Part shown: piece by piece, positions 2,611 through 55,365 of the stretch
Numbering within the stretch: position 1 is the stretch's first letter
Layout of the letters: each line of letters opens with the position of its first letter
Assembly: GCA_963834265.1 (NCBI GenBank)
Contig: CAWIAU010000001.1
Location: 588,346 to 652,345, forward strand
Source of the DNA: an uncultured bacterium
GTDB taxonomy: Bacteria; Patescibacteriota; Saccharimonadia; Saccharimonadales; 2-12-FULL-41-12
Length of the DNA stretch: 64,000 bases
Reading direction: 5' to 3'
The notes under the pieces: model-generated
What the model was told of the DNA's origin: nothing
Database searches by the model: none
The model's input: the letters and a program-made list of their open reading frames with translations, nothing else
Made by a program: the position numbers and the translations under genes

Positions 2611-5600
2611 CTCCGGCCATTAAATCTTCTTCGAATTTAAGGATACCTAGTATGTCCTTTGAATACCCGGCCGTGTCGGGTAAGTCCAGACTTATAATTC
2701 TGCCCCAGACGGTCCGAATAAGTGATTTCAACCGGTCCATTTCTTCAGTGCCATAATCAAGTGAAAGACTGAGTAACTTTTCGCTGTCCCCTTTTTCCAG
2801 AAAAACAAGTTTACCCTGCACGGGCGCAATTTTCCCCCCATATTCTCTGGATCCATCAACAAGCAGCTTATAGAACAATAATTGCTGTCTGTAACGGTGC
2901 AGTTTAAGTGCCTCATATGTATTTGATCCGGCTTTTGGCCATGAACCTGACGCTTTGCCGGTTTTGTAATCGGTAATTGCGACGGTTTTTGCCTCTTTAT
3001 CGATATCAAGCAAATCGATTTTTCCTTTAAGTCGTATATCACCCAGCATAACATCTTCATAGGCAAAGTCTTTTTCTGCCGCCTGCCCCGATTGGAAAAT
3101 ATGAGAGTCGTTTCTATACAAGTGCTTAATTGCCTGTTCTCCCCGACCTGTCTGTTTGGGCGTTTCTATGTCTCCCAGATGGTAACCAGCCAGATCTGCA
3201 GTAAAATAATCATTTGTTTCTGCAAATGCCGGTAGTTTGCCGTGCTTGCTATAGTGATTGTGCAGATACTCCATCGTATGGTGCATGGCGTTTCCGAAAG
3301 ACGCATTCGGTCCGAGTGCATGCGGAAATCGCAGCAATTGATTCAGCAGGAATGTCCGGGGACCGCCACGGGATACATCGAGGAAAGCATTCAGGTGAGT
3401 CGGACTTAACCGATAAGATTGCATAGATTCGCCCAGCGTTTCGCGCCATGATGCTTGTAACGAAGAGTTAATATGGTGGTCATACCACTCGAACTGCAAT
3501 GTTCGCAGTACGGCTTCGGGTGTTTTTATATGACTTTTTTCCGCCAACAGCAATTTTTTCGCCTGCTCATCAGCAAGCCAGCCAAGCGGTAATGCGGGCT
3601 TACCATCATCGCCTGTCTGATAAGTCGCTAATATTAATTCATCACCGGCCCTGGTAAGCGCAACATAGAACAATCGCAGACGTTCGTCATCATTGCTGCC
3701 TTTCGGCACTGCTGCAATGTGCGGCGGTAAATTAATCAGATTGGGTCGCGTGCGATTATTTGCCCAGCCACTTTGCACGGCTTTGAGTAAATAAACAGTA
3801 TTGAATTCCAGGCCTTTAGCTTTATGAGCAGTCATTAGCTGCACGGCAGCCTCGCCTGTTGTAACCGGATGATCATTGACGATGCGGAGTCCTGCGGATT
3901 TTGATAGCGTTACATAATCAGTAAAATCTTTGAGCAGCAGTGTCCGTGTGCCTGCATATTCCCGGATGTGCCTTCGCAGGGCCACAAGCCCTGTGAGCAG
4001 ATACAGATATGCACCCGAATTTTTGCTGTCATTAAAGTAGTATCGTCTATAAGGGGAGTCAAAAGATGACTTTGGCTGCTCTTCGCTCCCTATAAGATAA
4101 TCCAGCATTGATTCCAGCGGTGTATGGCGGGCCATTACCGACTGCTCAATAAGCCAGACGGCAATAGCCTGAAGTTTCTTATTGCTGCCGGATTGAATAA
4201 CTTCCAGCCAACTGGTTCGGTTTTTATGAGCTTCCAGGCTGATCTGCCATAGTTCCTGTGGATCAATTCCCCACCAGGGCAGACTTAATAGTTCAGGCAG
4301 CTGCGCATTCACTCTGTACATATCCTGGCTCATAAGCCGCTCTATGATTTCACCCAGCAGGCAAAGCTCGCGGATATGTTTCTCTTCCAATACATCCTGC
4401 CTTCGTTCGTAACGAGTAGCTATCTGTAGCGCATCGAGATGAGGCACCAAAGCTTCAAGATGCGCATGACGTGGCCCGAGAACTGCGATTGTTGCGGGAT
4501 CCTGGCCATTCACAATGCGTTGCTTTATCTCTCGTGCAACTTCTGAGAGACTACCGGATTCAGTGGCTGCCTGAACTAAGCGAACATCCGGACCGGCTTC
4601 GTTGTCAGTATGAAGTTCTTTATTTATGGATTCATAATTTGTTTCGAGTCTGTCGGCTCCCTGTACTATAACGGATCGTGAAAATGCCACAATTTCGGGA
4701 GTGGACCGATAATTTTGTGTAAGTATTACGGTCTCTGTTTCCCGCCAGCGATTCAAAAAATCCAAAACATTTGAAATATAAGCTCCCTGAAAGCCATAGA
4801 TTGCCTGATCATCGTCCCCTACCACCATTAAATTCGGTTTGCCTTCATGTACCGGATTGTCAGCTATTATGTCCAGAATCTGCTGTTGCACGCCACTGGT
4901 GTCCTGGTATTCGTCAACCATTATGTACAAAAATTGCTCCTGAAGATCTGCCAGCAGGTCTTTGCTGGTGCGAAGTACATGCAACGTGGTCATCAACAGG
5001 TCGTCATAGTCAACAAATCCGGATTTATTCATTGCGTCCTGATATTGCTCATATACTTCTGCGAGAGCCAATAGCTTCTCATAATCTTTTGTGCTTCGCG
5101 CAATAAATACACCTTCACCTGATTTAGTAAGCCAGCTATTTTTCCACGCGGTAATTGGTTTGGTAGATAGTTTTCCGTCTTCGATTGCATGGCTGAGCGC
5201 TTCACTAAGCTCCAGCCGGCAACGCACACCAAGTTCGCTTTTGGGTGTGACAGGCAATGATTCCAGCAATGATTCGAATAAAGAAATGCTTTTGGCATTG
5301 ATTGTTTTGAGTTCAGTCAAATGTGAACCTAATGCATGATTGCATTCCCTGATCCACTCATTATCAAGTTTGCAAATCTCACGTAAACGCTCCGGCTTTA
5401 TTCCCGCCTGCTTGAGCTGACTGATACGACTCATGGAGTCTTTCAAATATACGTAATCGCCGTCATTTGTACTCGCCAGGGGGCTTTTGTGTGCCAGACG
5501 CTCAAAAACAGAACTGTATATCTGATACCGCATGACATCATCAACCTGAACATAATCAAAAAAATGTCTGAAATATTCGGGATAGGTACGCATGGCCCAC

Positions 5601-7911: not shown

Positions 7912-10900
7912 CCCAGCCATTCCCTTGCGTTTTGAAAGATTTTGAACCACGGGCTTTCTTCGCCCCAATCATTTGGGTGCCAGGAAAGCTGTTTGGACAG
8001 GAAAGCCCGCTCAGGATGAGGCATCAGAATGGTGGCTCGTCCATCGCGGGTAGTCAATGCGGTAATACCCTTCCCGGAGCCATTTGGATTAAGGGGATAC
8101 TCTTCAGTAACTTTACCGTAGTTATTGACATACTGCAGAGGCACTAATTTATCATTCAGCACTCTGTCTGACGAAAAGTTAGCATCAAATACTGCCTGTC
8201 CTTCGCCATGCGCGACCGGAATCGGTAAAACTGAACCAGCCATATCTTTGAAAAATATTGACGGACTGTCGCTGATCTTGACGCTAACCAGACGGGCTTC
8301 ATAACGCCCTGAAATGTTTTGCAAAAATTCAGGCCAGTGATCAGTGCCCGGGATAAGCTCTTTTAGGGCTGAGAGCATCTGACAACCATTACAGACGCCT
8401 AGTGACAATGTATCAGGGCGTTCAAAAAATTGTCGGAATTCCTGTCGCAATTTTGTATTAAACAAAATAGACTTAGCCCAGCCTTCACCTGCTCCCAGAA
8501 CGTCTCCATAGCTAAAGCCACCGCAAGCTGCCAGAAGTGAGAAGCCATCCAAAGAATGTTTGCCCGAGATCAGATCTGACATATGAACATCAATTGCAAC
8601 GAATCCGGCTTTTTCAAACGCTGCGGCCATCTCAACCTGTCCGTTGATTCCCTGCTCACGCAAGATAGCCGCTTTTGGGCGGGTTTTGTAGGTATTCTCA
8701 GATAATTTAAATGAAACGTGAGTAGAAAGTCCCGGGTCTCCATTATCACGGATTGCTTCAAATTCCTGCCTGGCAGATGCCGGGTTGTCCCGTAATTTCT
8801 GAACATGATAACTCGTTTCGGCCCACCACGATTCCAGCTTAGCGCGAGAAGAGCGATATATTTCTTTATCATTACTTCGGATAATAACATCTTGTTTTTT
8901 TGTCGGTCGCCCTATTGCGTGAACATGATTTCCCAGTGCGGCGGTGATTTTTTCTAAAACAAATGCTTCGTCAGCCATCGCTACCTGGATAACAGCTCCA
9001 AGCTCCTCGCTAAACAATTTTTCTATTTCTGATCCCGAAGTATTGATGTTAATGTCCAGACCACAACGACCCGCAAATGCCATCTCGACAAGCGTGGTAA
9101 ATAATCCGCCATCCGAACGATCGTGGTAAGCCAGTATTTTATCAGCTTTACTTAATGCCTGAATAATTTCAAAAAATTGTCGGAGCGAATCAGGATCAAT
9201 ATCAGGAGAGTCATTTCCGGTTTGATTGTATGCCTGTGCAAATGACGAACCGCCTAAACGATTCTTTCCCAGCCCCAGATCAACATATATCAGACTGCTT
9301 ATTTCTTTTTTGAGCTCCGGCGTCAATACTTTTGAGGTGTCGGTTACAGGACTAAATGCGCTGACAATGAGTGATAATGGCGATGAGACTGACTTCGCTT
9401 TGCCATCTTCTTCCCAGGTGGCCCGCATACTGAGTGAATCTTTACCGACAGGTACACAAATTCCGAGTTCGGGACAGAAATCCTCACCAAGAGCCTTGAC
9501 ACTTTCGAATAGCTTTTCATCCTCGGAACCATATCCTGCTGCGGCCATCCAATTGGCTGAAAGTTTGATATCAGATAATCCAGCAATCGGTGCCGCAACA
9601 ATATTAGTGAGCGCTTCGCCAACTGCAATGCGAACCGATGCCGGAGCATTTATAAGACCCAAAGGTGTTCGTTCTCCAACCGCCATGGCCTCGCCAGCAT
9701 TTCCCTCATAGGAGGCGGCGGTTACGGCAACATCGCTGACAGGCACCTGCCAAGGTCCTGTCATCTGATCGCGCACACTGAGGCCGCCAACCGTACGATC
9801 ACCGATAGTGATCAGAAATTTTTTGCTGCCAACAGCCGGCATATGCAGCACGCGTTTTACGGCGTCATTCAAGTCTGTTTTGCTGAGACTGATATCTGCG
9901 AATTGCTGTTCGACATGCTTAAATGAGCGAATCATTTTGGGCGGGTTACCAAATATGAGATTGAGAGGAATGTTCACAGGAGTATTTCCGAAAAGCTCAT
10001 CATGAACCACCAGGTTTTGTTCATCAGTAGCGGTGCCGACTACTGCAAACGGACAGCGCTCTTTTTTGCACAGATTTTCAAAACGAAGCAGGTCTTTCCC
10101 ATTAATAGCCAGGACGTAGCGCTCCTGAGCTTCGTTGCACCAGATTTCCAACGGTGTCATACCAGGTTCGGTGCAAGGTACTTTTCGTAGTTCAATCATT
10201 GCTCCTAAATTATTATCATGCACAAGCTCGGGCAAAGCATTTGATAAGCCCCCGGCACCAACATCATGAATAGAAATAATCGGATTATCATCATCGCTCC
10301 GGCAGGCGCTTATGACTTCTTGTGCCCGACGCTGCATTTCGCCGTTGCCACGTTGGACTGATGCAAAGTCCAGCTCGTCTTTGCTTTCTCCGCTCTGCAT
10401 GCTGGAAGCAGCACCCCCGCCGAGGCCGATAAGCATTGCAGGCCCGCCCAGCACAATCAATTTATCGCCGGCAGTTATTTTATTTTTATGAACATATTTA
10501 TCTCTGATATTACCAAGCCCGCCTGCTATCATAAGCGGTTTGTGATATCCCCATCTGCTGCCATCCACATCCTGCTCATAGGTCCGGAAGTAACCACCCA
10601 GGTTTACGCGGCCAAATTCATTCGCAAAAGCCGCTCCCCCCAAAGGCGCTTCAATCATGATTTCCAGTGGTGAGCTGAAAAGCTTCGGCTTACCGTAATT
10701 TGATTCCCATGGCTGGGGTAAAGTTTTCAGATTGAGGTTAGAAACGCTGAAACCTGTAAAACCCATTTTAGATTCTGCTCCCCGACCGGTAGCTCCTTCA
10801 TCACGTATTTCACCGCCTATGCCTGTAGCTGCCCCTGCATAGGGTGAAATAGCAGTCGGATGATTATGTGTTTCCGCTTTAATGACAAGATGTGCTGGTT

Positions 10901-30277: not shown

Positions 30278-30283
30278 ATAAGT

Positions 30284-30398
30284 ACTCTTTCGGGGTTGGG
30301 TGCAAGTCCCAATCGGTGGTTACAGCCCACGAGTTGCCTGGCAACACGATTTGGTGAAATTCCAAAGCCGACCGTATAGTCGGGATGAAAGAAAGAGT
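30284..30398 (+). promoter_or_regulatory. FMN riboswitch (RFN element) aptamer
   Basis: P1 pairs ACUCUUUC (30284-30291) with GAAAGAGU (30391-30398). Conserved RFN blocks are present: GGGGUUGGGUGCAAGUCCCAAUCGGUGGU, GAUUUGGUGAAAUUCCAAAGCCGAC and AGUCGGGAUGAAAGAAAGA. It lies upstream of ribBA. Confidence 0.85.
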
Positions 30399-30426
30399 GC
30401 AGACGCTTTTAATTGTGTATGCATAT

Positions 30427-36201: not shown

Positions 36202-37863
36202 ATGGGAGAACTTCTTTACGGACCGGAAATTAGTATAGATATTGAGCGCACTCAATCTGTATTCGAGACTGCTCATGAATTAAATTTGCAGATTTCTGAA
36301 CAGAATGAACGATTTGCTACTGCACACGAGATATTTGTTGATGAACCCGAGGTACTTAGATTAGCCGAACAAGGAATAGCAGAAGAACAACAGGAAACAT
36401 TTACAAATTTATCAACCATCGGACATAGTGAAGCGCAAGTCTATACATCATTAGGCGTGCTGAGCCTGTACTATGACAGTGAGTTAGAAGAAACACAGGC
36501 AAAAGCTGATGCGGCGCAAGCAGAAGGCGATGCAAAATCTGATCAGTTTGAAATAATTAAACAACAACGCGAGCAAGATGAAAGAAGTAAACTTGAGGAT
36601 ATACTCGGCCACGTTGAACGGCTGGCACCTAAAGCCCTGGAACGAGTCAAGGCATTACTGGACGAACGAATAGTTGGTACTGTGTCCAGCCAGGAAATTC
36701 TCGATTTAGAGGAAACGATTCTGGATTTATTCACTGAGGTAGATGAGCATAAGGAACATATAGATTCTATAGCTCGTCAAAAAATTTCATTAACTGAACT
36801 GGATAGGCAGGCTGATGATACCTGGGCACTACCACAGGCACTTATGAAGGTGCTTGGAAATGACACAAGTCAGTGGGTTTTGATAGATGAATTACCCGTC
36901 GATCCTACCTTAAGCCGGAGCGGCCATGAACGATACGCAGAGCTTCGTGGAAGGCACATAGACCAACCTGATGCATCGATTTATGCTGCTCTGTATTTAT
37001 CAGAACATGATAGCGAAACAGTTACAGTAGATGAAATTGCAGGTTTTCTGTACACACCCGAAACAATTGCCGGCATTAGTAATAACAACCTGCGGGCTCG
37101 CGTGACTACTCTTTTGGGACCAATAGCCGGAGAGTGTTTGCATAAAATTTTATTATCTGAGGGATATATCCTTCAGTACGGATGGCGCCGTAAATTGGAA
37201 AAAAATGGAAGCGATGACGTAAAAATTGTTTCCAGACATCGTATATACCGTGCAGTGCCACTTAATGATCTTAGTGTTCTGGAAACAGATACATCCTCAC
37301 AAGAGGATTATAAGGATGATTTCGAAGTAACACCGGAAATTGTAGGTCTGTTCACCGATTTTAAGCAGGAACGGGCAGCAAAACCCCCAGAAGCAGTCAT
37401 AGCCTCCAACCCAGATTCAGCAATCCGACTGCCTGCGCACAGAGATGGCACCCGATTGAGGACTCCGGCAAAGCCCGAAGAAGAGTTGCCGAGGTGGGTT
37501 AAAGAGTTTGAGAAAGAGGTTATGGATATACTAGAAGAACTTGAAATGTCCGATATGCTGACATCAGAAGAGGGCGAGTTAATTAAGGTTGCCCGGCACA
37601 AAAGTCGGAGCCGTAGCTTTGCTACTGAAGAAACTCTGACAAAACTTTACAATGCAGGCCACATGAGACAGCTATCAGGTATTCCTCGTCCACGCTGGGG
37701 AGACGTAAAAATTACTGCTCCAGATATGATCATAATGAAAATGTTTACTACCAAAAGAGAGCTACTGGGTAAAGGCCAGCCCCGACGTCCGGTTGCAGAA
37801 AGTATTATCGAGGGCGTTGTAGCTGACTACTTTACCCACAAAAGAGAGATAAATCCGCGATAA
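36202..37863 (+). CDS. Hypothetical acidic protein (553 aa)
   Basis: A long ORF with a Glu/Asp/Gln-rich, helix-prone N-terminal half. TTGATT-17-TATAAT ends 9 nt before the ATG. I recognise no domain. Confidence 0.65.
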   Translation: MGELLYGPEISIDIERTQSVFETAHELNLQISEQNERFATAHEIFVDEPEVLRLAEQGIAEEQQETFTNLSTIGHSEAQVYTSLGVLSLYYDSELEETQAKADAAQAEGDAKSDQFEIIKQQREQDERSKLEDILGHVERLAPKALERVKALLDERIVGTVSSQEILDLEETILDLFTEVDEHKEHIDSIARQKISLTELDRQADDTWALPQALMKVLGNDTSQWVLIDELPVDPTLSRSGHERYAELRGRHIDQPDASIYAALYLSEHDSETVTVDEIAGFLYTPETIAGISNNNLRARVTTLLGPIAGECLHKILLSEGYILQYGWRRKLEKNGSDDVKIVSRHRIYRAVPLNDLSVLETDTSSQEDYKDDFEVTPEIVGLFTDFKQERAAKPPEAVIASNPDSAIRLPAHRDGTRLRTPAKPEEELPRWVKEFEKEVMDILEELEMSDMLTSEEGELIKVARHKSRSRSFATEETLTKLYNAGHMRQLSGIPRPRWGDVKITAPDMIIMKMFTTKRELLGKGQPRRPVAESIIEGVVADYFTHKREINPR

Positions 37864-38161: not shown

Positions 38162-38584
38162 ATGAGCAGTACTATAAAAACACATGTTAATGATTCCAGT
38201 GTCAATGATTTTATTAATGCCGTGAGCGATGAGGCTAAGAAAGAAGATAGCTTTACGCTTCTGGAAATGTATTCCAGAATCACCGGTGAAGAGCCCAAAA
38301 TGTGGGGTTCGAGTATTATCGGCTTCGGACAATATCATTACAAGTCAGAACGCAGCAGGCAGGAGGGCGACTGGCTTCTCACCGGATTTTCGCCGCGTAA
38401 GCAAAACCTGACTCTATATTTTATGCCGGGGTTTGATGGTTATGCAGAAACGCTTACAAAGCTCGGCAAGCATAAGACGAGTGTCGGATGTTTGTATATT
38501 AAGAAGCTGGCTGATGTAGATAAGAGTGTTCTGGAAAAGTTGATCAGGCAGTCTTATTTGGAAATGAAAAAGAAACACAGCTAA
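38162..38584 (+). CDS. DUF1801 (YdhG-like) domain protein
   Basis: The blocks VNDFINAV ... GFGQYHYKSERSRQEGDW ... LYIKKLADVD are typical of DUF1801. TTGAAT-16-TATAAT ends 7 nt before ATG 38162. Confidence 0.75.
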   Translation: MSSTIKTHVNDSSVNDFINAVSDEAKKEDSFTLLEMYSRITGEEPKMWGSSIIGFGQYHYKSERSRQEGDWLLTGFSPRKQNLTLYFMPGFDGYAETLTKLGKHKTSVGCLYIKKLADVDKSVLEKLIRQSYLEMKKKHS

Positions 38585-38647
38585 ATAGTCGATTTCATGT
38601 AATCTGACCGGGGGGGTAGTTCTAAATTAAAACTTATATGCTGGCGA

Positions 38648-39076
38648 TCATGCGGACAGATGTTCGGGTGTTCCTGCAGCAGCGGGAGCTGGCCTTAAAG
38701 GCCCTGTCAGGACAGGTTCCGCGTAAATAAGCGGAATATCAATAGCGAAATGACCTTGATTGAGTACAACTTTTGGCGATTCTCCGCATAGTGCGTCCTG
38801 ATATCCGGCCGTGTAGTCTACTCTGCCTCTAGCAATTCTTGCTGCGTGTCGAAAAACTCCGCTTGCGATTCCCAATCCCAGGCTTACTGCTCCGGTAAGC
38901 AATGGGGGGTCTCCCTCAACGGCATGTTTAACGGATATATATCCTGCAATCGTACTGCCAACTCCGGTAAGGAATGCCTTCCTGTCATCATTCAGAGCGT
39001 TCCGTGCCATCTTTTTTTGGGCAGGATCTAGTTTATCGCTACCATAATCTTGCTTAAATTCTTCTAACGCACCCAT
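38648..39076 (-). CDS. Hypothetical protein with two predicted membrane helices
   Basis: AAGGAG lies 7 nt upstream of the ATG. The central segments are Gly/Ala-rich and hydrophobic. Confidence 0.55.
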   Translation of the reverse strand: MGALEEFKQDYGSDKLDPAQKKMARNALNDDRKAFLTGVGSTIAGYISVKHAVEGDPPLLTGAVSLGLGIASGVFRHAARIARGRVDYTAGYQDALCGESPKVVLNQGHFAIDIPLIYAEPVLTGPLRPAPAAAGTPEHLSA

Positions 39077-39142
39077 GCATCATCTCCTTTCTTTAACATG
39101 CTAATTATTATGCCATATTTCAACTTCGGCCATCAATAATAA

Positions 39143-39260
39143 TGCCACGGAGGAGGGATTCGACCTTGCCATGACAAATTAAAATTAAATTTGTCATGGC
39201 AACTCTTCGGGTGGCAGGCGGCCAATGTCCACAGGGCATTGTCGTTCGAATCCCCCGCCA
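39143..39260. other. Composite palindromic / structured element containing inverted tRNA T-arm-like fragments
   Basis: A perfect 15-bp hairpin (39166-39180 with 39188-39202) is nested in a 12-bp helix (39143-39155 with 39203-39216). A second hairpin domain follows at 39217-39259. The flanks GGAGGAGGGATTCGACC and GTCGTTCGAATCCCCCGCC form an imperfect inverted pair resembling the tRNA-Gln T-arm and acceptor. Confidence 0.6.
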
Positions 39261-39305
39261 AAGAAAAAGGTTTGCACATGAGTACAAGACTCACGGTCAA
39301 ACCTT
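39260..39305 (-). terminator. Intrinsic terminator after tRNA-Gln
   Basis: On the minus strand, AAGGUUUG...GUGAGU-CUUGU-ACUCAU...CAAACCUU is followed by UUUCUUU, starting right after the encoded CCA. Confidence 0.6.
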
Positions 39306-39380
39306 TGGCTGGGGAGGAGGGATTCGAACCCCCGAATGCCAGTACCAAAAACTGGTGCCTTACCACTTGGCCACTCCCCA
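39306..39380 (-). tRNA. tRNA-Gln (anticodon UUG), CCA encoded
   Basis: The 75-nt sequence UGGGGAGUGGCCAAGUGGUAAGGCACCAGUUUUUGGUACUGGCAUUCGGGGGUUCGAAUCCCUCCUCCCCAGCCA folds as a cloverleaf. It has a U1-A72 pair, the anticodon loop UUUUGGU, and close resemblance to bacterial tRNA-Gln. Confidence 0.93.
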
Positions 39381-39429
39381 CTGCACGTTTATTTTACCTT
39401 AAAGGTGTTCGAATTATTAATATGTATTT

Positions 39430-39525
39430 AAAAACTGACCTGCGGTCGGCGTGCCAGTACCGATTAATTGATTTGGTTGCGATGAATCGCAACTGGCTGG
39501 TGCCTTACTACTTGGCCACTCCCCA
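39430..39525 (-). other. tRNA-Gln-like fragment: 5' half plus anticodon-stem 3' strand, with a 35-nt hairpin insert and no T-arm
   Basis: UGGGGAGUGGCCAAGUAGUAAGGCACCAG matches the real gene at 28 of 29 nt. A 35-nt insert containing GUUGCGA-UUCA-UCGCAAC follows, then GGUACUGGCA, then GACC-GCA-GGUC and a U-run. There is no GGUUCGAAUCC and no 3' acceptor strand. Confidence 0.6.
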
Positions 39526-39620
39526 ACGAATTGTAAATAACAGATGGAATTGTAGCATATAACGATAATAAAAATTTGATGTTCTAAACAGGGCCTAAAG
39601 AAGTTATAATAACCTTTAGC

Positions 39621-40487
39621 ATGAGAGTTATTGAGCCGCAAAAGCTATCTACTAAGGCAGTGCAGGATTCTGGACGTAATTATTCTAAACTTATTCTTTT
39701 GAGTTTGTTGGTTGTCGGAGCTGTGGTTGGTGGGTGGTATTTTCTTTCTAACAAATCATCCCCTGCTGAGCGGGCAAAGAATGGTTCAGGGAGCAATAAC
39801 TCAGCGCAGGTACTGGCTGAGTCACCCAAAAAAGGAACGCTGAGAATATTTACACCCCAGCAGTTCCGCGATCTTTATAATAATTTTGCATATCCCAATA
39901 CCGAACGTATCAGCGACAAGACTCCGATAACCGGCAATACCGAAGCTGATAATTATATACGCGCAATGGCTCAGGAAAGAGGTTACACACTGCGCAGTGC
40001 TCCGGTAGCAAACGTATTTCAAGAGGTTGCACCAGGCATGACCCTTCAGCAAAAGGCCGCTCAGCCATGGCTTGACATGCAGGCCGCGGCAAAAAAAGAA
40101 AATATTGAGATAGATCTTTCAGCTGCTTACCGCTCAGCGGCAGACCAGACAGAAATATTTACTTCCCGCTTATCGGTTGCCGGCATCAATGCCAGCCGAA
40201 TTCCATCCGGGGCGTACGACAAACAGATATCGACGGTTCTGCAATCGACAGCCGTACCGGGCTATTCCAGACATCATACAGGCTATACAATTGATATAAC
40301 ATGCGTCAAAACACCAGCACTGTCGTTTTTGGCTACAAATTGCTTTGAATGGCTCAGCAGAGATAATTACAAAAATGCCAAAAAATATGGCTGGATACCC
40401 AGCTATCCGGAGGGCACCGGAATGCAGGGGCCTGAGCCTGAAGCATGGGAATACGTCTGGGTTGGAACTGACACAGTAACCGAGTAG
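39621..40487 (+). CDS. M15-family peptidase (VanY / D-alanyl-D-alanine carboxypeptidase type), membrane anchored
   Basis: N-terminal transmembrane helix, SRHHTGYTIDI (S-x-H-x-x-G-x-x-x-D) and a C-terminal EAWEYVWVG. Confidence 0.8.
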   Translation: MRVIEPQKLSTKAVQDSGRNYSKLILLSLLVVGAVVGGWYFLSNKSSPAERAKNGSGSNNSAQVLAESPKKGTLRIFTPQQFRDLYNNFAYPNTERISDKTPITGNTEADNYIRAMAQERGYTLRSAPVANVFQEVAPGMTLQQKAAQPWLDMQAAAKKENIEIDLSAAYRSAADQTEIFTSRLSVAGINASRIPSGAYDKQISTVLQSTAVPGYSRHHTGYTIDITCVKTPALSFLATNCFEWLSRDNYKNAKKYGWIPSYPEGTGMQGPEPEAWEYVWVGTDTVTE

Positions 40488-40578: not shown

Positions 40579-41124
40579 ATGGCACTCGCATCGACAGTAT
40601 TATTAGATGAAGTAAATGACGGGGCAATAATTGGTCAGTCGTACCTCAAAAGGCCACGCTGGTTCCGGGTGCTGGTCGGAGTACCATTGATATATATCCC
40701 GATATTAGTCTCAATGCCATTTGTCGTTCTGGGCATATTGGTAGTTCGCATGCACCTGCGAGCTTTAGGTGCTCATAATATGAAAAGTTATTGGGATTTT
40801 GTACCGGAGAAAGCATCCCATCGTTATACCAGCACAACCCAGCCGAGGTATAACAATAATCCTTTCGCTATTGTTCATTACAAATGGTTCTGGCTCTTTA
40901 ACTGCCGGATGTACTGCCCAATGTCAGTTGCCGGACTACGCTATTACACATATCTGGTAAAAATTGTTGAGAATTGGTGGTGCCCGTTTGAGCATTCACG
41001 CAAACATGAATATTCGGATGCAACTATCGACGGATCATTCTGGCATCTGCGCAAAAAACACCGTGATATGCTGCACCCCGATGATCGCGATAACCCGATC
41101 TGGAATAAAAATAAACGAAAGTAG
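40579..41124 (+). CDS. Hypothetical membrane protein with a Trp/His/Cys-rich C-terminal region
   Basis: AGGAG lies 8 nt upstream of the ATG. One clear transmembrane segment. I recognise no family. Confidence 0.55.
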   Translation: MALASTVLLDEVNDGAIIGQSYLKRPRWFRVLVGVPLIYIPILVSMPFVVLGILVVRMHLRALGAHNMKSYWDFVPEKASHRYTSTTQPRYNNNPFAIVHYKWFWLFNCRMYCPMSVAGLRYYTYLVKIVENWWCPFEHSRKHEYSDATIDGSFWHLRKKHRDMLHPDDRDNPIWNKNKRK

Positions 41125-41185: not shown

Positions 41186-42106
41186 ATGAGCAATACCAAA
41201 AATAATAAATATATAATGCCCCTCCACGTGAACAACCTGAATGGCCGTATGTTGTGTCTGCCCCCCAAAAAAGATAACAGAAAACGAGAGATTTTGGTTT
41301 TATACGGTCAGCATGCCAGTCTGGAACGCATGGCCGGCATTGCCGAGGTATTGAACGGATATGGTGCGATTACAATTCCTGATTTGCCGGGGTTTGGCGG
41401 TATGGATAGTTTTTATAAAATAGGTTCCAAACCTACACTCGATAATTATGCTGATTATCTGGCATCAATTATCAAACTCCGTTACAGCAAACGCAAAGTT
41501 ACTATTGTAGCAATGTCGTTTTCGTTCCTGATTGTAACCCGCATGCTGCAACTTTATCCGGAACTTACAAAAAGAGTTGATATGCTGGTTAGTTTCGTCG
41601 GGTTTTTGCACCGCGATGACTTCCATGTGAGAAAATCCATATACTGGACATGGCGGTCTGTTGCGTTTTTATTCGGTAGTCGTATCGGCTCAACCTTTGC
41701 GCGATATATATTACTTCAACCCTGGGTTATCAGGTCGGCTTATGCATTAGTATCCGGACGCCACCCTAAACTCATGGGGGCTAATAAATTAGAGCAAAAA
41801 AAACGAGTAGACTTCGAAATAAAACTCTGGCATATAAATGATATGCGCACACGGATGAAAACTCTCAAGGCCATGATTACAGCAGATTTATGCAAGCAAT
41901 CCGTTAAAATGCCGGTTTATCATGTATCTGTGGCCGGAGATTTCTATTTCAATAATAACGTTGTTGAACAGCACATGCGTATTGTTTACAGCGATTTTGA
42001 AAATATACCTGCCAAAGTTTCCGCGCATGCTCCGACAATTATAGCTACAGCAAAAGACGCCGCCCCGTTTATACCTCCCCGTCTGCGCAAATTACTATCA
42101 AAGTAA
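41186..42106 (+). CDS. Alpha/beta-hydrolase-fold protein (tentative, atypical nucleophile elbow)
   Basis: ILVLYGQHAS ... DLPGFGGMDS ... VTIVAMSFSF follows the alpha/beta-hydrolase layout but lacks a canonical G-x-S-x-G. Confidence 0.5.
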   Translation: MSNTKNNKYIMPLHVNNLNGRMLCLPPKKDNRKREILVLYGQHASLERMAGIAEVLNGYGAITIPDLPGFGGMDSFYKIGSKPTLDNYADYLASIIKLRYSKRKVTIVAMSFSFLIVTRMLQLYPELTKRVDMLVSFVGFLHRDDFHVRKSIYWTWRSVAFLFGSRIGSTFARYILLQPWVIRSAYALVSGRHPKLMGANKLEQKKRVDFEIKLWHINDMRTRMKTLKAMITADLCKQSVKMPVYHVSVAGDFYFNNNVVEQHMRIVYSDFENIPAKVSAHAPTIIATAKDAAPFIPPRLRKLLSK

Positions 42107-47947: not shown

Positions 47948-48553
47948 TTATAGAGCCTGGCGACCCTCGAGTGCTCTGCCCAAAGTTATCTGATCGGCAT
48001 ATTCAAGGTCAAGACCAATAGGCAGTCCTCTGGCCAGGCGGGAGATTTTGACTTTACGATCACCTATTTTATTCGCGATCAGTAAAGCCGTTGATTCCCC
48101 TTCTACACTGGCATTGGTGGCAAGTATTATTTCTTCTACAGCATCCTCGTCTATGCGGTTCACAAGTTCATCAATACGCAGCTTTTCCGGCCCTATACCA
48201 TCAATGGGAGAGATCAGACCACCCAACACATGATATGTACCACTGAACTGTCCTATTCGCTCCAGAGCAATAATATCAAACGGATCAGCCACAACAGCTA
48301 CAAGTTTCTTATCACGACCAGAGTCACTATATAAAGGAGATATTTTTTGATCCGCGTTTATCAGTGCAAAAGTTTTCGGACAATACCTCGTACCGCTGTG
48401 CAACTTCTCCATGGCGGCGGCAATCTGATGGCTTTTCGCAGAATCATTCCTGAGAAGATAATACGCATACCGCTCTGCACTACGGGGTCCTACACCTGGT
48501 AATACTCCCAGCGCTTCAATAAGATTCTGCAAAGCTTTTGGCAATAAGCTCAT
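47948..48553 (-). CDS. recR: Recombination protein RecR
   Basis: HhH N-terminus LPGVGPRSAERYAYYLL and a Toprim region YHVLGGLISP. Confidence 0.95.
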   Translation of the reverse strand: MSLLPKALQNLIEALGVLPGVGPRSAERYAYYLLRNDSAKSHQIAAAMEKLHSGTRYCPKTFALINADQKISPLYSDSGRDKKLVAVVADPFDIIALERIGQFSGTYHVLGGLISPIDGIGPEKLRIDELVNRIDEDAVEEIILATNASVEGESTALLIANKIGDRKVKISRLARGLPIGLDLEYADQITLGRALEGRQAL

Positions 48554-55106: not shown

Positions 55107-55335
55107 CATCACCTCTTTCAGAGGAAATTCCAAAGTTTGAACGTCAAAGTTCAAAGCTCCGGAATCATTATTATTTGTTTAAAGCATACAGTCGACCACT
55201 GCAAGCCATTCGTTACCACTAAAAAAGCCTTTGGCTTCCCAAAGACTAAGATTGCATTTCAGAATTAACTTCTTATTGCTTCCTCGGCGACATTATCAGG
55301 GCTTTCGCTCGTCGCTGTCTTCGGTAACTTACTCC
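55107..55335 (-). promoter_or_regulatory. Long structured 5' leader of rplJ-rplL (candidate L10-type autoregulatory leader)
   Basis: About 225 nt lie between the promoter and the start codon. This stretch contains GGGAAGCC-AAA-GGCUUUUUU (55221-55240), which looks like an attenuator, and a UUUGAAC-UUUGAC-GUUCAAA hairpin just before the SD. Confidence 0.45.
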
Positions 55336-55365
55336 ACTATACACCTTAAATATCGATAAGGTCAA
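55336..55365 (-). promoter_or_regulatory. Promoter for rplJL (TTGACC-18-TATAGT)
   Basis: On the minus strand, the -35 lies at 55360-55365 and the -10 at 55336-55341. Confidence 0.55.

Follow-up and report, generated by a model that had tools for sequence, protein, structure and literature searches.

A partial tRNA-Gln copy, probably an insertion scar, and a family of structured units in the tRNA loops of Patescibacteria

Patescibacteria have tiny genomes, which typically hold a single copy of each tRNA gene. Tyrosine-integrase phages and islands that integrate in tRNA genes leave displaced gene segments behind as attL and attR repeats. A general rule on the tRNA segments displaced by integration in the anticodon loop or T-loop was reportedly set out by Williams in 2002. 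Cis-mobilisable and miniature integrative elements are att-flanked remnants that lack recombination genes, and the pneumococcal BOX, REP/BIME, and MITE families are modular structured repeats. Group I introns have a core comprising P1-P9 and are usually longer than 200 nt. Described cases close to the present locus are mycobacteriophage Ms6, which integrates in tRNA-Ala T-loops (PMC1762012), an instance of the classical loop integration that duplicates the 3' part of the tRNA; the group I introns in tRNA anticodon loops of Patescibacteria (PMC13011429); and split and permuted tRNA genes of Archaea, as outlined in PMC3218864.

The window considered here is a 64-kb stretch of DNA from this phylum. 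Its sole tRNA gene, tRNA-Gln(UUG), lies between a 142-aa open reading frame (38648-39076) and a divergent gene for a VanY-type peptidase (39621-40487). A truncated second copy of the tRNA sits just upstream. The features of the locus, all on the minus strand, are as follows:

39549-39557 (-): native tRNA-Gln promoter, extended -10 TGCTACAAT, conserved in position and sequence in relatives
39530-39535 (-): second TACAAT, 4 nt 5' of the fragment
39497-39525 (-): copy of tRNA-Gln 1-29 (the long arm), 28/29 match, in native promoter context
39462-39496 (-): 35-nt insert, standing in for 5 nt of anticodon stem and loop (UUUUU)
39452-39461 (-): copy of tRNA-Gln 35-44 (the short arm), 10/10 match
39430-39451 (-): weak terminator-like hairpin, CGCC + GACC-GCA-GGUC + AG + UUUUU, noted from the sequence and negative in a terminator scan
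39381-39429 (-): AT-rich spacer of the putatively inserted block, homologous to the spacers of loci L087 and L030
39306-39380 (-): intact tRNA-Gln(UUG), identified by ARAGORN and by Rfam tRNA (64 bits)
39261-39305 (-): terminator of the intact tRNA, hairpin AAGGUUUG...CAAACCUU plus U-run, noted from the sequence
39143-39260 (-): downstream unit R2, with a piece of the tRNA 3' end in inverted orientation (UGGCGGGGGAUUCGAAC), then three hairpins and a decayed direct copy from T-loop to 3' end, GGUCGAAUCCCUCCUCCGUGGCA

The long arm (39525-39497) reads UGGGGAGUGGCCAAGUAGUAAGGCACCAG. With up to three mismatches allowed, tRNA-Gln 1-29 occurs twice in the window, against an expectation of zero (100 shuffles). 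The only mismatch is an A at 39509, replacing the first G of the D-loop GG, which we take to be the invariant G18. In the fragment, tRNA sequence stops behind the CCAG of the anticodon stem and picks up again at the third anticodon base: the short arm, 39461-39452, is an exact recurrence of GGUACUGGCA (0.05 expected by chance). Between the arms, the insert contains a 7-bp hairpin, GUUGCGA/UCGCAAC (39493-39476). Neither T-arm nor 3' acceptor strand follows the short arm. The original prediction, made from the sequence alone, had described this anatomy correctly: the 29-nt repeat with one mismatch; the 3' strand of the anticodon stem; the hairpin-bearing insert in place of UUUUU; and the missing T-arm and 3' acceptor strand.

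ARAGORN (default, intron, and relaxed-score settings) and Rfam (E<=10), applied to 38900-39800, called only the intact gene at 39306-39380. The fragment was rejected as a functional tRNA gene on this ground and for its missing parts. Taken alone it is a non-functional leftover, which explains why tRNA finders report one gene where the sequence holds one and a half. Elsewhere in the window, Rfam at its gathering threshold found an FMN riboswitch (30282-30400, plus strand, 107 bits) and a ribosomal protein L10 leader (55212-55342, minus strand, 46.8 bits). No Pfam family was found for four sizeable open reading frames near the locus, at 36202-37863 (+), 38648-39076 (-), 40579-41124 (+), and 41186-42106 (+).

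The promoter of the locus is informative about the fragment's position. The extended -10 lies 23 nt upstream of the fragment's first base (a 24-nt offset) and is followed next by the conserved CCATCTGTT. Many relatives share the consensus TGnTACAAT..CTGTT 5' of tRNA-Gln, and the native promoter is kept 5' of the intact gene in L086, L087, L001, L003, L006, L007, L034, L038, and L043. In the window, this promoter precedes the fragment and not the intact tRNA-Gln. The fragment therefore occupies the gene's native 5' position. The TACAAT box noted earlier is indeed present, but it is not conserved in L086, which has TTTCAT in its place.

The same note had proposed that the fragment ends in a terminator and could yield a self-contained RNA of ~95 nt. 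The GACC/GGUC stem (39447-39437) has only 4 bp, followed by U5, and fails the terminator scan, which found no terminator-like site between the fragment and the intact tRNA-Gln. With no effective terminator before the intact gene, the fragment is probably co-transcribed as part of a long leader. On the sequence, read-through into the intact tRNA is more likely than a ~95-nt RNA, which is doubtful given the weak terminator and a conserved promoter that lies further upstream. Transcription would start at the native promoter, and RNase P would cut the leader, with no role of its own, from the intact tRNA downstream.

By its VanY homologues and 80 related loci, the window belongs to the Saccharimonadales (TM7, Patescibacteria). 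A tRNA-Gln gene diverging from VanY is a widely conserved arrangement, but the distance between the two is 240 nt in the window versus 62-133 nt usually in relatives. In the nearest relative found, L086 (VanY 68% identical, gene order the same), the promoter TATGYTACAATTCCATCTGTTATTT abuts the intact tRNA-Gln, and the promoter stretch directly 5' of the gene is TATGTTACAATTCCATCTGTTATTT. The two sequences align with a single gap of 145 nt: a block present in the window and missing in L086. This block consists of 116 nt of unique sequence plus the first 29 nt of the intact gene (39352-39380, the second copy of the direct repeat). A 29-nt direct repeat thus bounds the extra DNA, and owing to this repeat the block may be placed at either 39352-39496 or 39381-39525. 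Two further near relatives, L088 and L089, also do without the fragment. Polarity rests on very few relatives, and recombination between the 29-nt repeats gives the L086 state just as well as insertion gives the state in the window.

Other relatives resemble the window. In L087 (VanY 65% identical), the native promoter is followed by tRNA-Gln 1-52, an insert of ~88 nt, GGTCGAATCCCTC, a spacer, and the intact tRNA-Gln; L030 and L005 are built alike. The window spacer (39381-39420) aligns with the spacers of the L087 and L030 units, sharing TTAAyAATTCGAACmC..TTArGGTAwAAT. The window spacer contains an inverted T-arm piece, AATTCGAACACC (39415-39404), whose T-arm-like AATTCGAAC matches part of the T-arm in reverse complement. 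Just 5' of the intact gene, it also has a promoter-like TTAATA-18-TAAAAT (39420-39391). Across 32 tRNA-Gln loci selected by VanY homology only, 13 contain partial tRNA-Gln copies, ~10 of them convincing direct copies. Partial copies thus accompany about one third of the sampled tRNA-Gln loci, despite the typical single-copy state of tRNA genes.

Several contigs end at or inside tRNA-Gln: L014, L024, L032, L087, L088, and the Logan contigs of the window's own genome. The tRNA-Gln of L022 is identical to that of the window (75/75). Such tRNA sequences, identical between species, together with local repeats, probably break assembly graphs at tRNA-Gln. Separately, L020 contains (3360-3450, minus strand) a 5'-truncated tRNA-Gln copy with a 43-nt T-loop insert that includes GTAAGGATACTTCCGAG, reminiscent of the core of the R1 module described below. 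The tRNA-Gln next to this copy belongs to another sequence type, and just 5' of the intact tRNA is a GIY-YIG-like open reading frame.

In a BLAST comparison with the window and every fetched locus, the 116-nt interval of the block matched only itself, and neither block nor insert matched viral contigs, metagenomes, phages, or the ~200 fetched loci. Exact searches for the 35-nt insert found none in viral or metagenome contigs, and blastn of the unit against phages found no match. The block contains no open reading frame, and no recombinase, transposase, or integrase lies in or beside it. Nor was a circular or free form of it, or any cargo or parent element, found in the window, viral contigs, phages, or metagenomes.

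The layout of the fragment, by contrast with its sequence, recurs widely. Loci L005, L012, L015, L027, L029, and L030 share a conserved insert of ~95 nt, here called R1, in which the conserved strands UGAGA, GCAAGGAAAYCUUCCGAUG, and AAUCGYGAAGUUUCGG link three hairpins. No Rfam family matches R1, which a pattern scan located in at least 120 loci among metagenome contigs (L090-L209; for example, L123:2425-2520 and L097:1505-1599). Pairing holds in 96.5% of cells over 119 distinct sequences, with compensatory changes at 32 of the 33 pairs. Covariation scores 0.44, and no more than 0.07 once the pairing partners are slid; the alignment was fitted to the model, which favours structure, and the slid controls are nevertheless far lower.

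Two arrangements account for most of the 120 distinct R1 copies listed. In 59, R1 lies ~100 nt downstream of an intact tRNA (most at ~95-123 nt) and is followed by that tRNA's own 3' end, often identical to the intact gene at 21/21 positions. In 27, it lies 40-140 nt upstream of an intact tRNA and is preceded by that tRNA's own 5' part. For the other 34, no tRNA stands within 400 nt, in part because contigs end. At least 16 tRNA species adjoin R1. The insertion point is mostly the T-loop; in some cases the D-loop (tRNA-Gly, tRNA-Pro, some tRNA-Gln, and L015); and in L169 (tRNA-Glu) the anticodon loop, the same loop as that of the window's insert. R1 is co-oriented with the tRNA in all 86 cases listed, and in 46 of these 86 the short arm adjoins at least 8 nt of the interrupted arm in inverted orientation, well above shuffled controls.

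The 27 upstream units listed share a plan: a long 5' arm runs into the T-, D-, or anticodon loop, where an insert interrupts it, and the tRNA sequence then goes on for another 10-20 nt. An inverted copy of the interrupted arm often comes next, and then a spacer and the intact gene. As a general pattern, recurring in Saccharimonadales and other Patescibacteria, a unit is a partial tRNA copy interrupted in one loop, normally by R1, beside an intact copy that gains its own promoter (upstream form) or terminator (downstream form).

Two simple accounts of R1 were rejected. Treated as an intron, with in-silico removal at 48,378 boundary combinations, R1 gave a restored tRNA in only 1 of 129 instances. 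As a general model, R1 does not mark both ends of a single element in the manner of an LTR. The upstream and downstream copies around one tRNA are usually not each other's closest relatives (identity 0.57-0.80, with the exception of L030/L112 at 0.93), which argues for separate events; tandem downstream copies are 0.89-1.0 identical. R1 had no match in phages, plasmids, or viral contigs, and five 17-mer matches in viral contigs were discarded as chance, with no covariance-model match.

Units also accumulate. Tandem identical downstream units are present in L144 and L153, and units are stacked in L027, L144, L134, and L121. The last of these (L121:1-4480) presents tRNA-Gln(CUG), a 4.1-kb cargo island (P-type ATPase, CsoR-like repressor, SHOCT, and PLD-like nuclease genes), two tRNA 3' fragments, and an R1 unit, and its contig probably ends in one more unit. 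The search for an integrase-bearing parent element at these sites found none; the L121 island itself has no integrase. In L027, the displaced 3' fragment belonging to an R1 unit is succeeded first by a terminator homologous to that of the window and then by an R2-like piece. Successive T-loop insertions, each pushing older units downstream, would produce this order; the tandem units of L144 and L153 and the L121 island point the same way.

R1 is not the only module. A second, R1b (GCAAGGCCGGAAGCCGGAUGACGAACGUCACCGACUGAGGCGG-like), was seen in L087 (120-205, minus strand), L095, L100, L113, L130, L131, L175, and L177, either alone or fused in tandem with R1 ahead of a shared final hairpin; the fusions point to a modular family of repeats. 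Another downstream insert, the third, is R3 (110-250 nt), which lies 3' of tRNA-Gln in L001, L003, L006, and L015. It opens with GGAGGGTTCCGAAACC..GAGCGAAGCGAA and runs up to ATCCCTCCGCCCCAGCCA, which is the final ~18 nt of the tRNA; the layout is shared and the module differs. Some R1 copies (L122, L173, L196, L198, and L209) have flanks that are not tRNA-like (GUUAUCACGGGUGACG...CGUGAUAAC), in which Rfam finds no family; L173 also carries a lysM-TM7 RNA (8833-8972).

The window contains a unit on the downstream side as well. R2 ends with GGUCGAAUCCCUCCUCC and a decayed acceptor end. Two of its tRNA-derived pieces were overlooked in the first reading of the sequence: an exact 15-nt copy of T-arm and acceptor (39163-39149), and an inverted 3'-end-like piece (39244-39263, plus strand). 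R2 is highly conserved between the window and L086, whereas the adjacent terminator is unalignable. An nhmmer search found R2 only in the window, L086, and L043; its consensus fold shows compensatory changes, and it has no Rfam match. Because it is so conserved beside an unalignable terminator, and recurs in L043, R2 is under constraint or has been recently homogenised. The 142-aa open reading frame adjoining R2 has a syntenic counterpart of 160 aa at the same place in L086.

How does the fragment compare with the upstream units, a class defined in the present analysis and termed B-type? Its long arm, positions 1-29, stands behind the conserved promoter, and its break point is a tRNA loop bounded by a symmetric stem. 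Short arms of the class run to ~10-20 nt, with the intact gene within ~40-140 nt; here the values are 10 nt and 71 nt. The spacer has L087/L030 homology, an inverted T-arm piece, and a promoter-like box. The 35-nt insert occupies the position at which family members carry R1, but it yields no significant R1 score: with filters off, the R1 covariance model gave at best 8.7 bits across 38500-40000, on the opposite strand, and -0.2 bits at 39434-39450. A likeness between the insert and the R1 or R1b hairpins is suggestive by eye only, and was set aside for lack of support from alignment or model. Judged by its layout and by ~40 nt of spacer homology, the window's unit is a member of the recurring upstream class.

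Together, these comparisons make it probable that the fragment is tRNA-Gln's original 5' part, still at its native promoter, cut off from the rest of the gene by the 145-bp block in the form of a recurrent upstream unit. It is best read as a decayed insertion scar: a displaced segment of a gene, not a gene. The block would have brought the hairpin insert, 10 nt of tRNA, the spacer, in which the inverted T-arm piece and the promoter-like site lie, and a fresh copy of tRNA 1-29 that restores the intact gene. We infer that the unit arose when a small DNA, bearing an insert, a spacer with a promoter, and a 5' segment of tRNA-Gln, recombined with the chromosomal gene in a loop. Such recombination would leave the old 5' part at the native promoter; the module would have been deleted, replaced, or never present in the window. 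Among the possibilities first listed for the fragment, duplication by a mobile element fits best, given the empty site in L086, the spacer homology with L087 and L030, and the 27 upstream units. Several observations count against insertion: no mobility gene and no free form accompany the block, its sequence is unmatched in the collections searched, the R1 model does not score in the window, and the elements that classically integrate in tRNA genes displace the 3' part, unlike the 5' part displaced here.

The chief competitor is plain tandem duplication: slippage or unequal crossing-over would have doubled a segment with the 5' part of tRNA-Gln, and the upstream copy would have decayed later, no mobile cassette being involved. 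The copies are direct and 145 nt apart, the upstream one has a mutated D-loop GG and a disrupted anticodon loop, and no mobility gene is nearby. A tandem duplication should repeat the flank, but the upstream flanks of fragment and intact gene are unrelated, and that of the intact gene is instead homologous to the L087 and L030 spacers. The arrangement of long arm, insert, and short arm recurs at 27 other tRNA genes, and the L087 copies have different acceptor stems (UGGGGAG in the interrupted copy at the native promoter, UGGGGCG in the intact copy downstream). Tandem duplication is thus unlikely. The earlier suggestion of a decaying tRNA duplicate survives insofar as the fragment is not a working tRNA, but not in the sense of a simple tandem copy. 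That suggestion treated an absence of conservation beyond this genome as the mark of simple decay: insert and block have no match in any of the collections searched, but the architecture is widespread.

A functional tRNA-derived RNA, which might draw off tRNA-binding factors as a decoy, regulate the maturation of tRNA-Gln, or as a leader tune the expression of the downstream gene, also seems rather improbable. The unit does stand behind the strongest conserved promoter of the locus; its 39 tRNA-derived bases are nearly intact; and the related modules R1 and R2 are under clear structural constraint. The structured module constrained elsewhere is, however, missing from the window, the sequence is unconserved in every relative and collection searched, the nearest relatives manage with no such unit, and the terminator is weak. 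The predicted fold of the unit is somewhat more stable than that of shuffled sequences (z = -2.2), an unexceptional value, since 5 of 200 shuffles are equally stable.

The original prediction also raised a relic of an intron-containing or split tRNA, with the insert as an intron remnant, or with the fragment and the 3' piece at 39149-39170 as the two halves. Anticodon-loop group I introns are common in Patescibacteria, including at position 35/36 (PMC13011429), the insert's right-hand junction adjoins the third anticodon base, and a 3' fragment does exist downstream. Against this, the 35-nt insert matches neither Intron_gpI (RF00028) nor any other Rfam family at E<=10, ARAGORN's intron mode is negative, and the 10-nt short arm is not followed by the parts from which exons could rejoin into a complete tRNA. 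The supposed halves have no complementary leader or trailer, and the intact gene stands between them. This reading is largely refuted, and we regard it as very improbable. Least credible is an assembly artefact, an extra partial copy from a mis-joined repeat: tRNA-Gln is a repeat node at which relatives' contigs and the Logan contigs of this genome break, but a separate Logan assembly (ERR12037361, whose reads may or may not underlie the window's genome) begins within the intact gene and has VanY 267 nt further on, as expected if the block is present; a mismatch and an insert set the fragment apart from the intact copy, so that no read path was collapsed or duplicated; and comparable units occur in many independent assemblies.

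Returning to the insertion scar, a broader proposal can be made, more tentatively. The fragment may be the decayed trace of a set of undescribed and abundant elements of Patescibacteria: modules R1, probably R1b, R2, and R3, lodged in partial-tRNA loops at at least 16 tRNA species. These would be either mobile DNAs that enter tRNA loops and rebuild their targets, perhaps acting through folded single strands, or functional RNAs linked to tRNAs. If mobile, they use essential single-copy tRNA genes as landing sites and spare the host, with no adjacent recombinase. If functional, they constitute a new class of tRNA-linked RNA in a phylum with very little known regulation. Either way, the units cause metagenome assemblies to break at tRNA genes, and one may easily take them for pseudogenes or split tRNAs. 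The scar itself is of modest interest; its family deserves dedicated study.

The literature searched contained no description of R1-like modules, of gene-less units of this size, or of 5'-side displacement with a supplied promoter. The systems introduced above each share part of the picture. The group I introns of Patescibacteria belong to the same phylum and insert in tRNA anticodon loops, but they are full ribozymes in complete genes, from which they splice precisely (PMC13011429); the window holds a 35-nt insert in a truncated copy. Archaeal split tRNAs, as PMC3218864 outlines them, likewise encode separate 5' and 3' pieces; here, in a bacterium, an intact gene is present and the pieces have no complementary joining sequences. 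Like BOX, REP/BIME, and MITE repeats, R1 consists of consecutive imperfect hairpins with conserved linkers, and occurs in many copies, tandem or nested with a related module. Unlike them, it is tied to partial-tRNA loops and always oriented with the tRNA among the cases listed, and the window's fragment lacks it.

Resemblance to integrative elements is closer. As with cis-mobilisable elements, the units are small gene-less DNAs bounded by integration-site repeats and found in tandem at one tRNA gene; they differ in that no integrase-bearing parent was found and in their regular size (R1 at ~95-123 nt from the tRNA downstream), which is a poor fit to random deletion remnants. Tyrosine-integrase elements differ from the window's block, which is 145 bp with neither integrase nor cargo, displaces the 5' part, and supplies a promoter. 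Their scars also differ, in that the displaced copy here is interrupted in a loop and often accompanied by an inverted tRNA arm. In other respects the parallel with those scars is direct: the inserted DNA carries part of the tRNA, and the gene stays intact; the displaced part remains as a direct repeat; the break falls in a tRNA loop; and repeated events stack units, as in L027, L144, L134, and L121.
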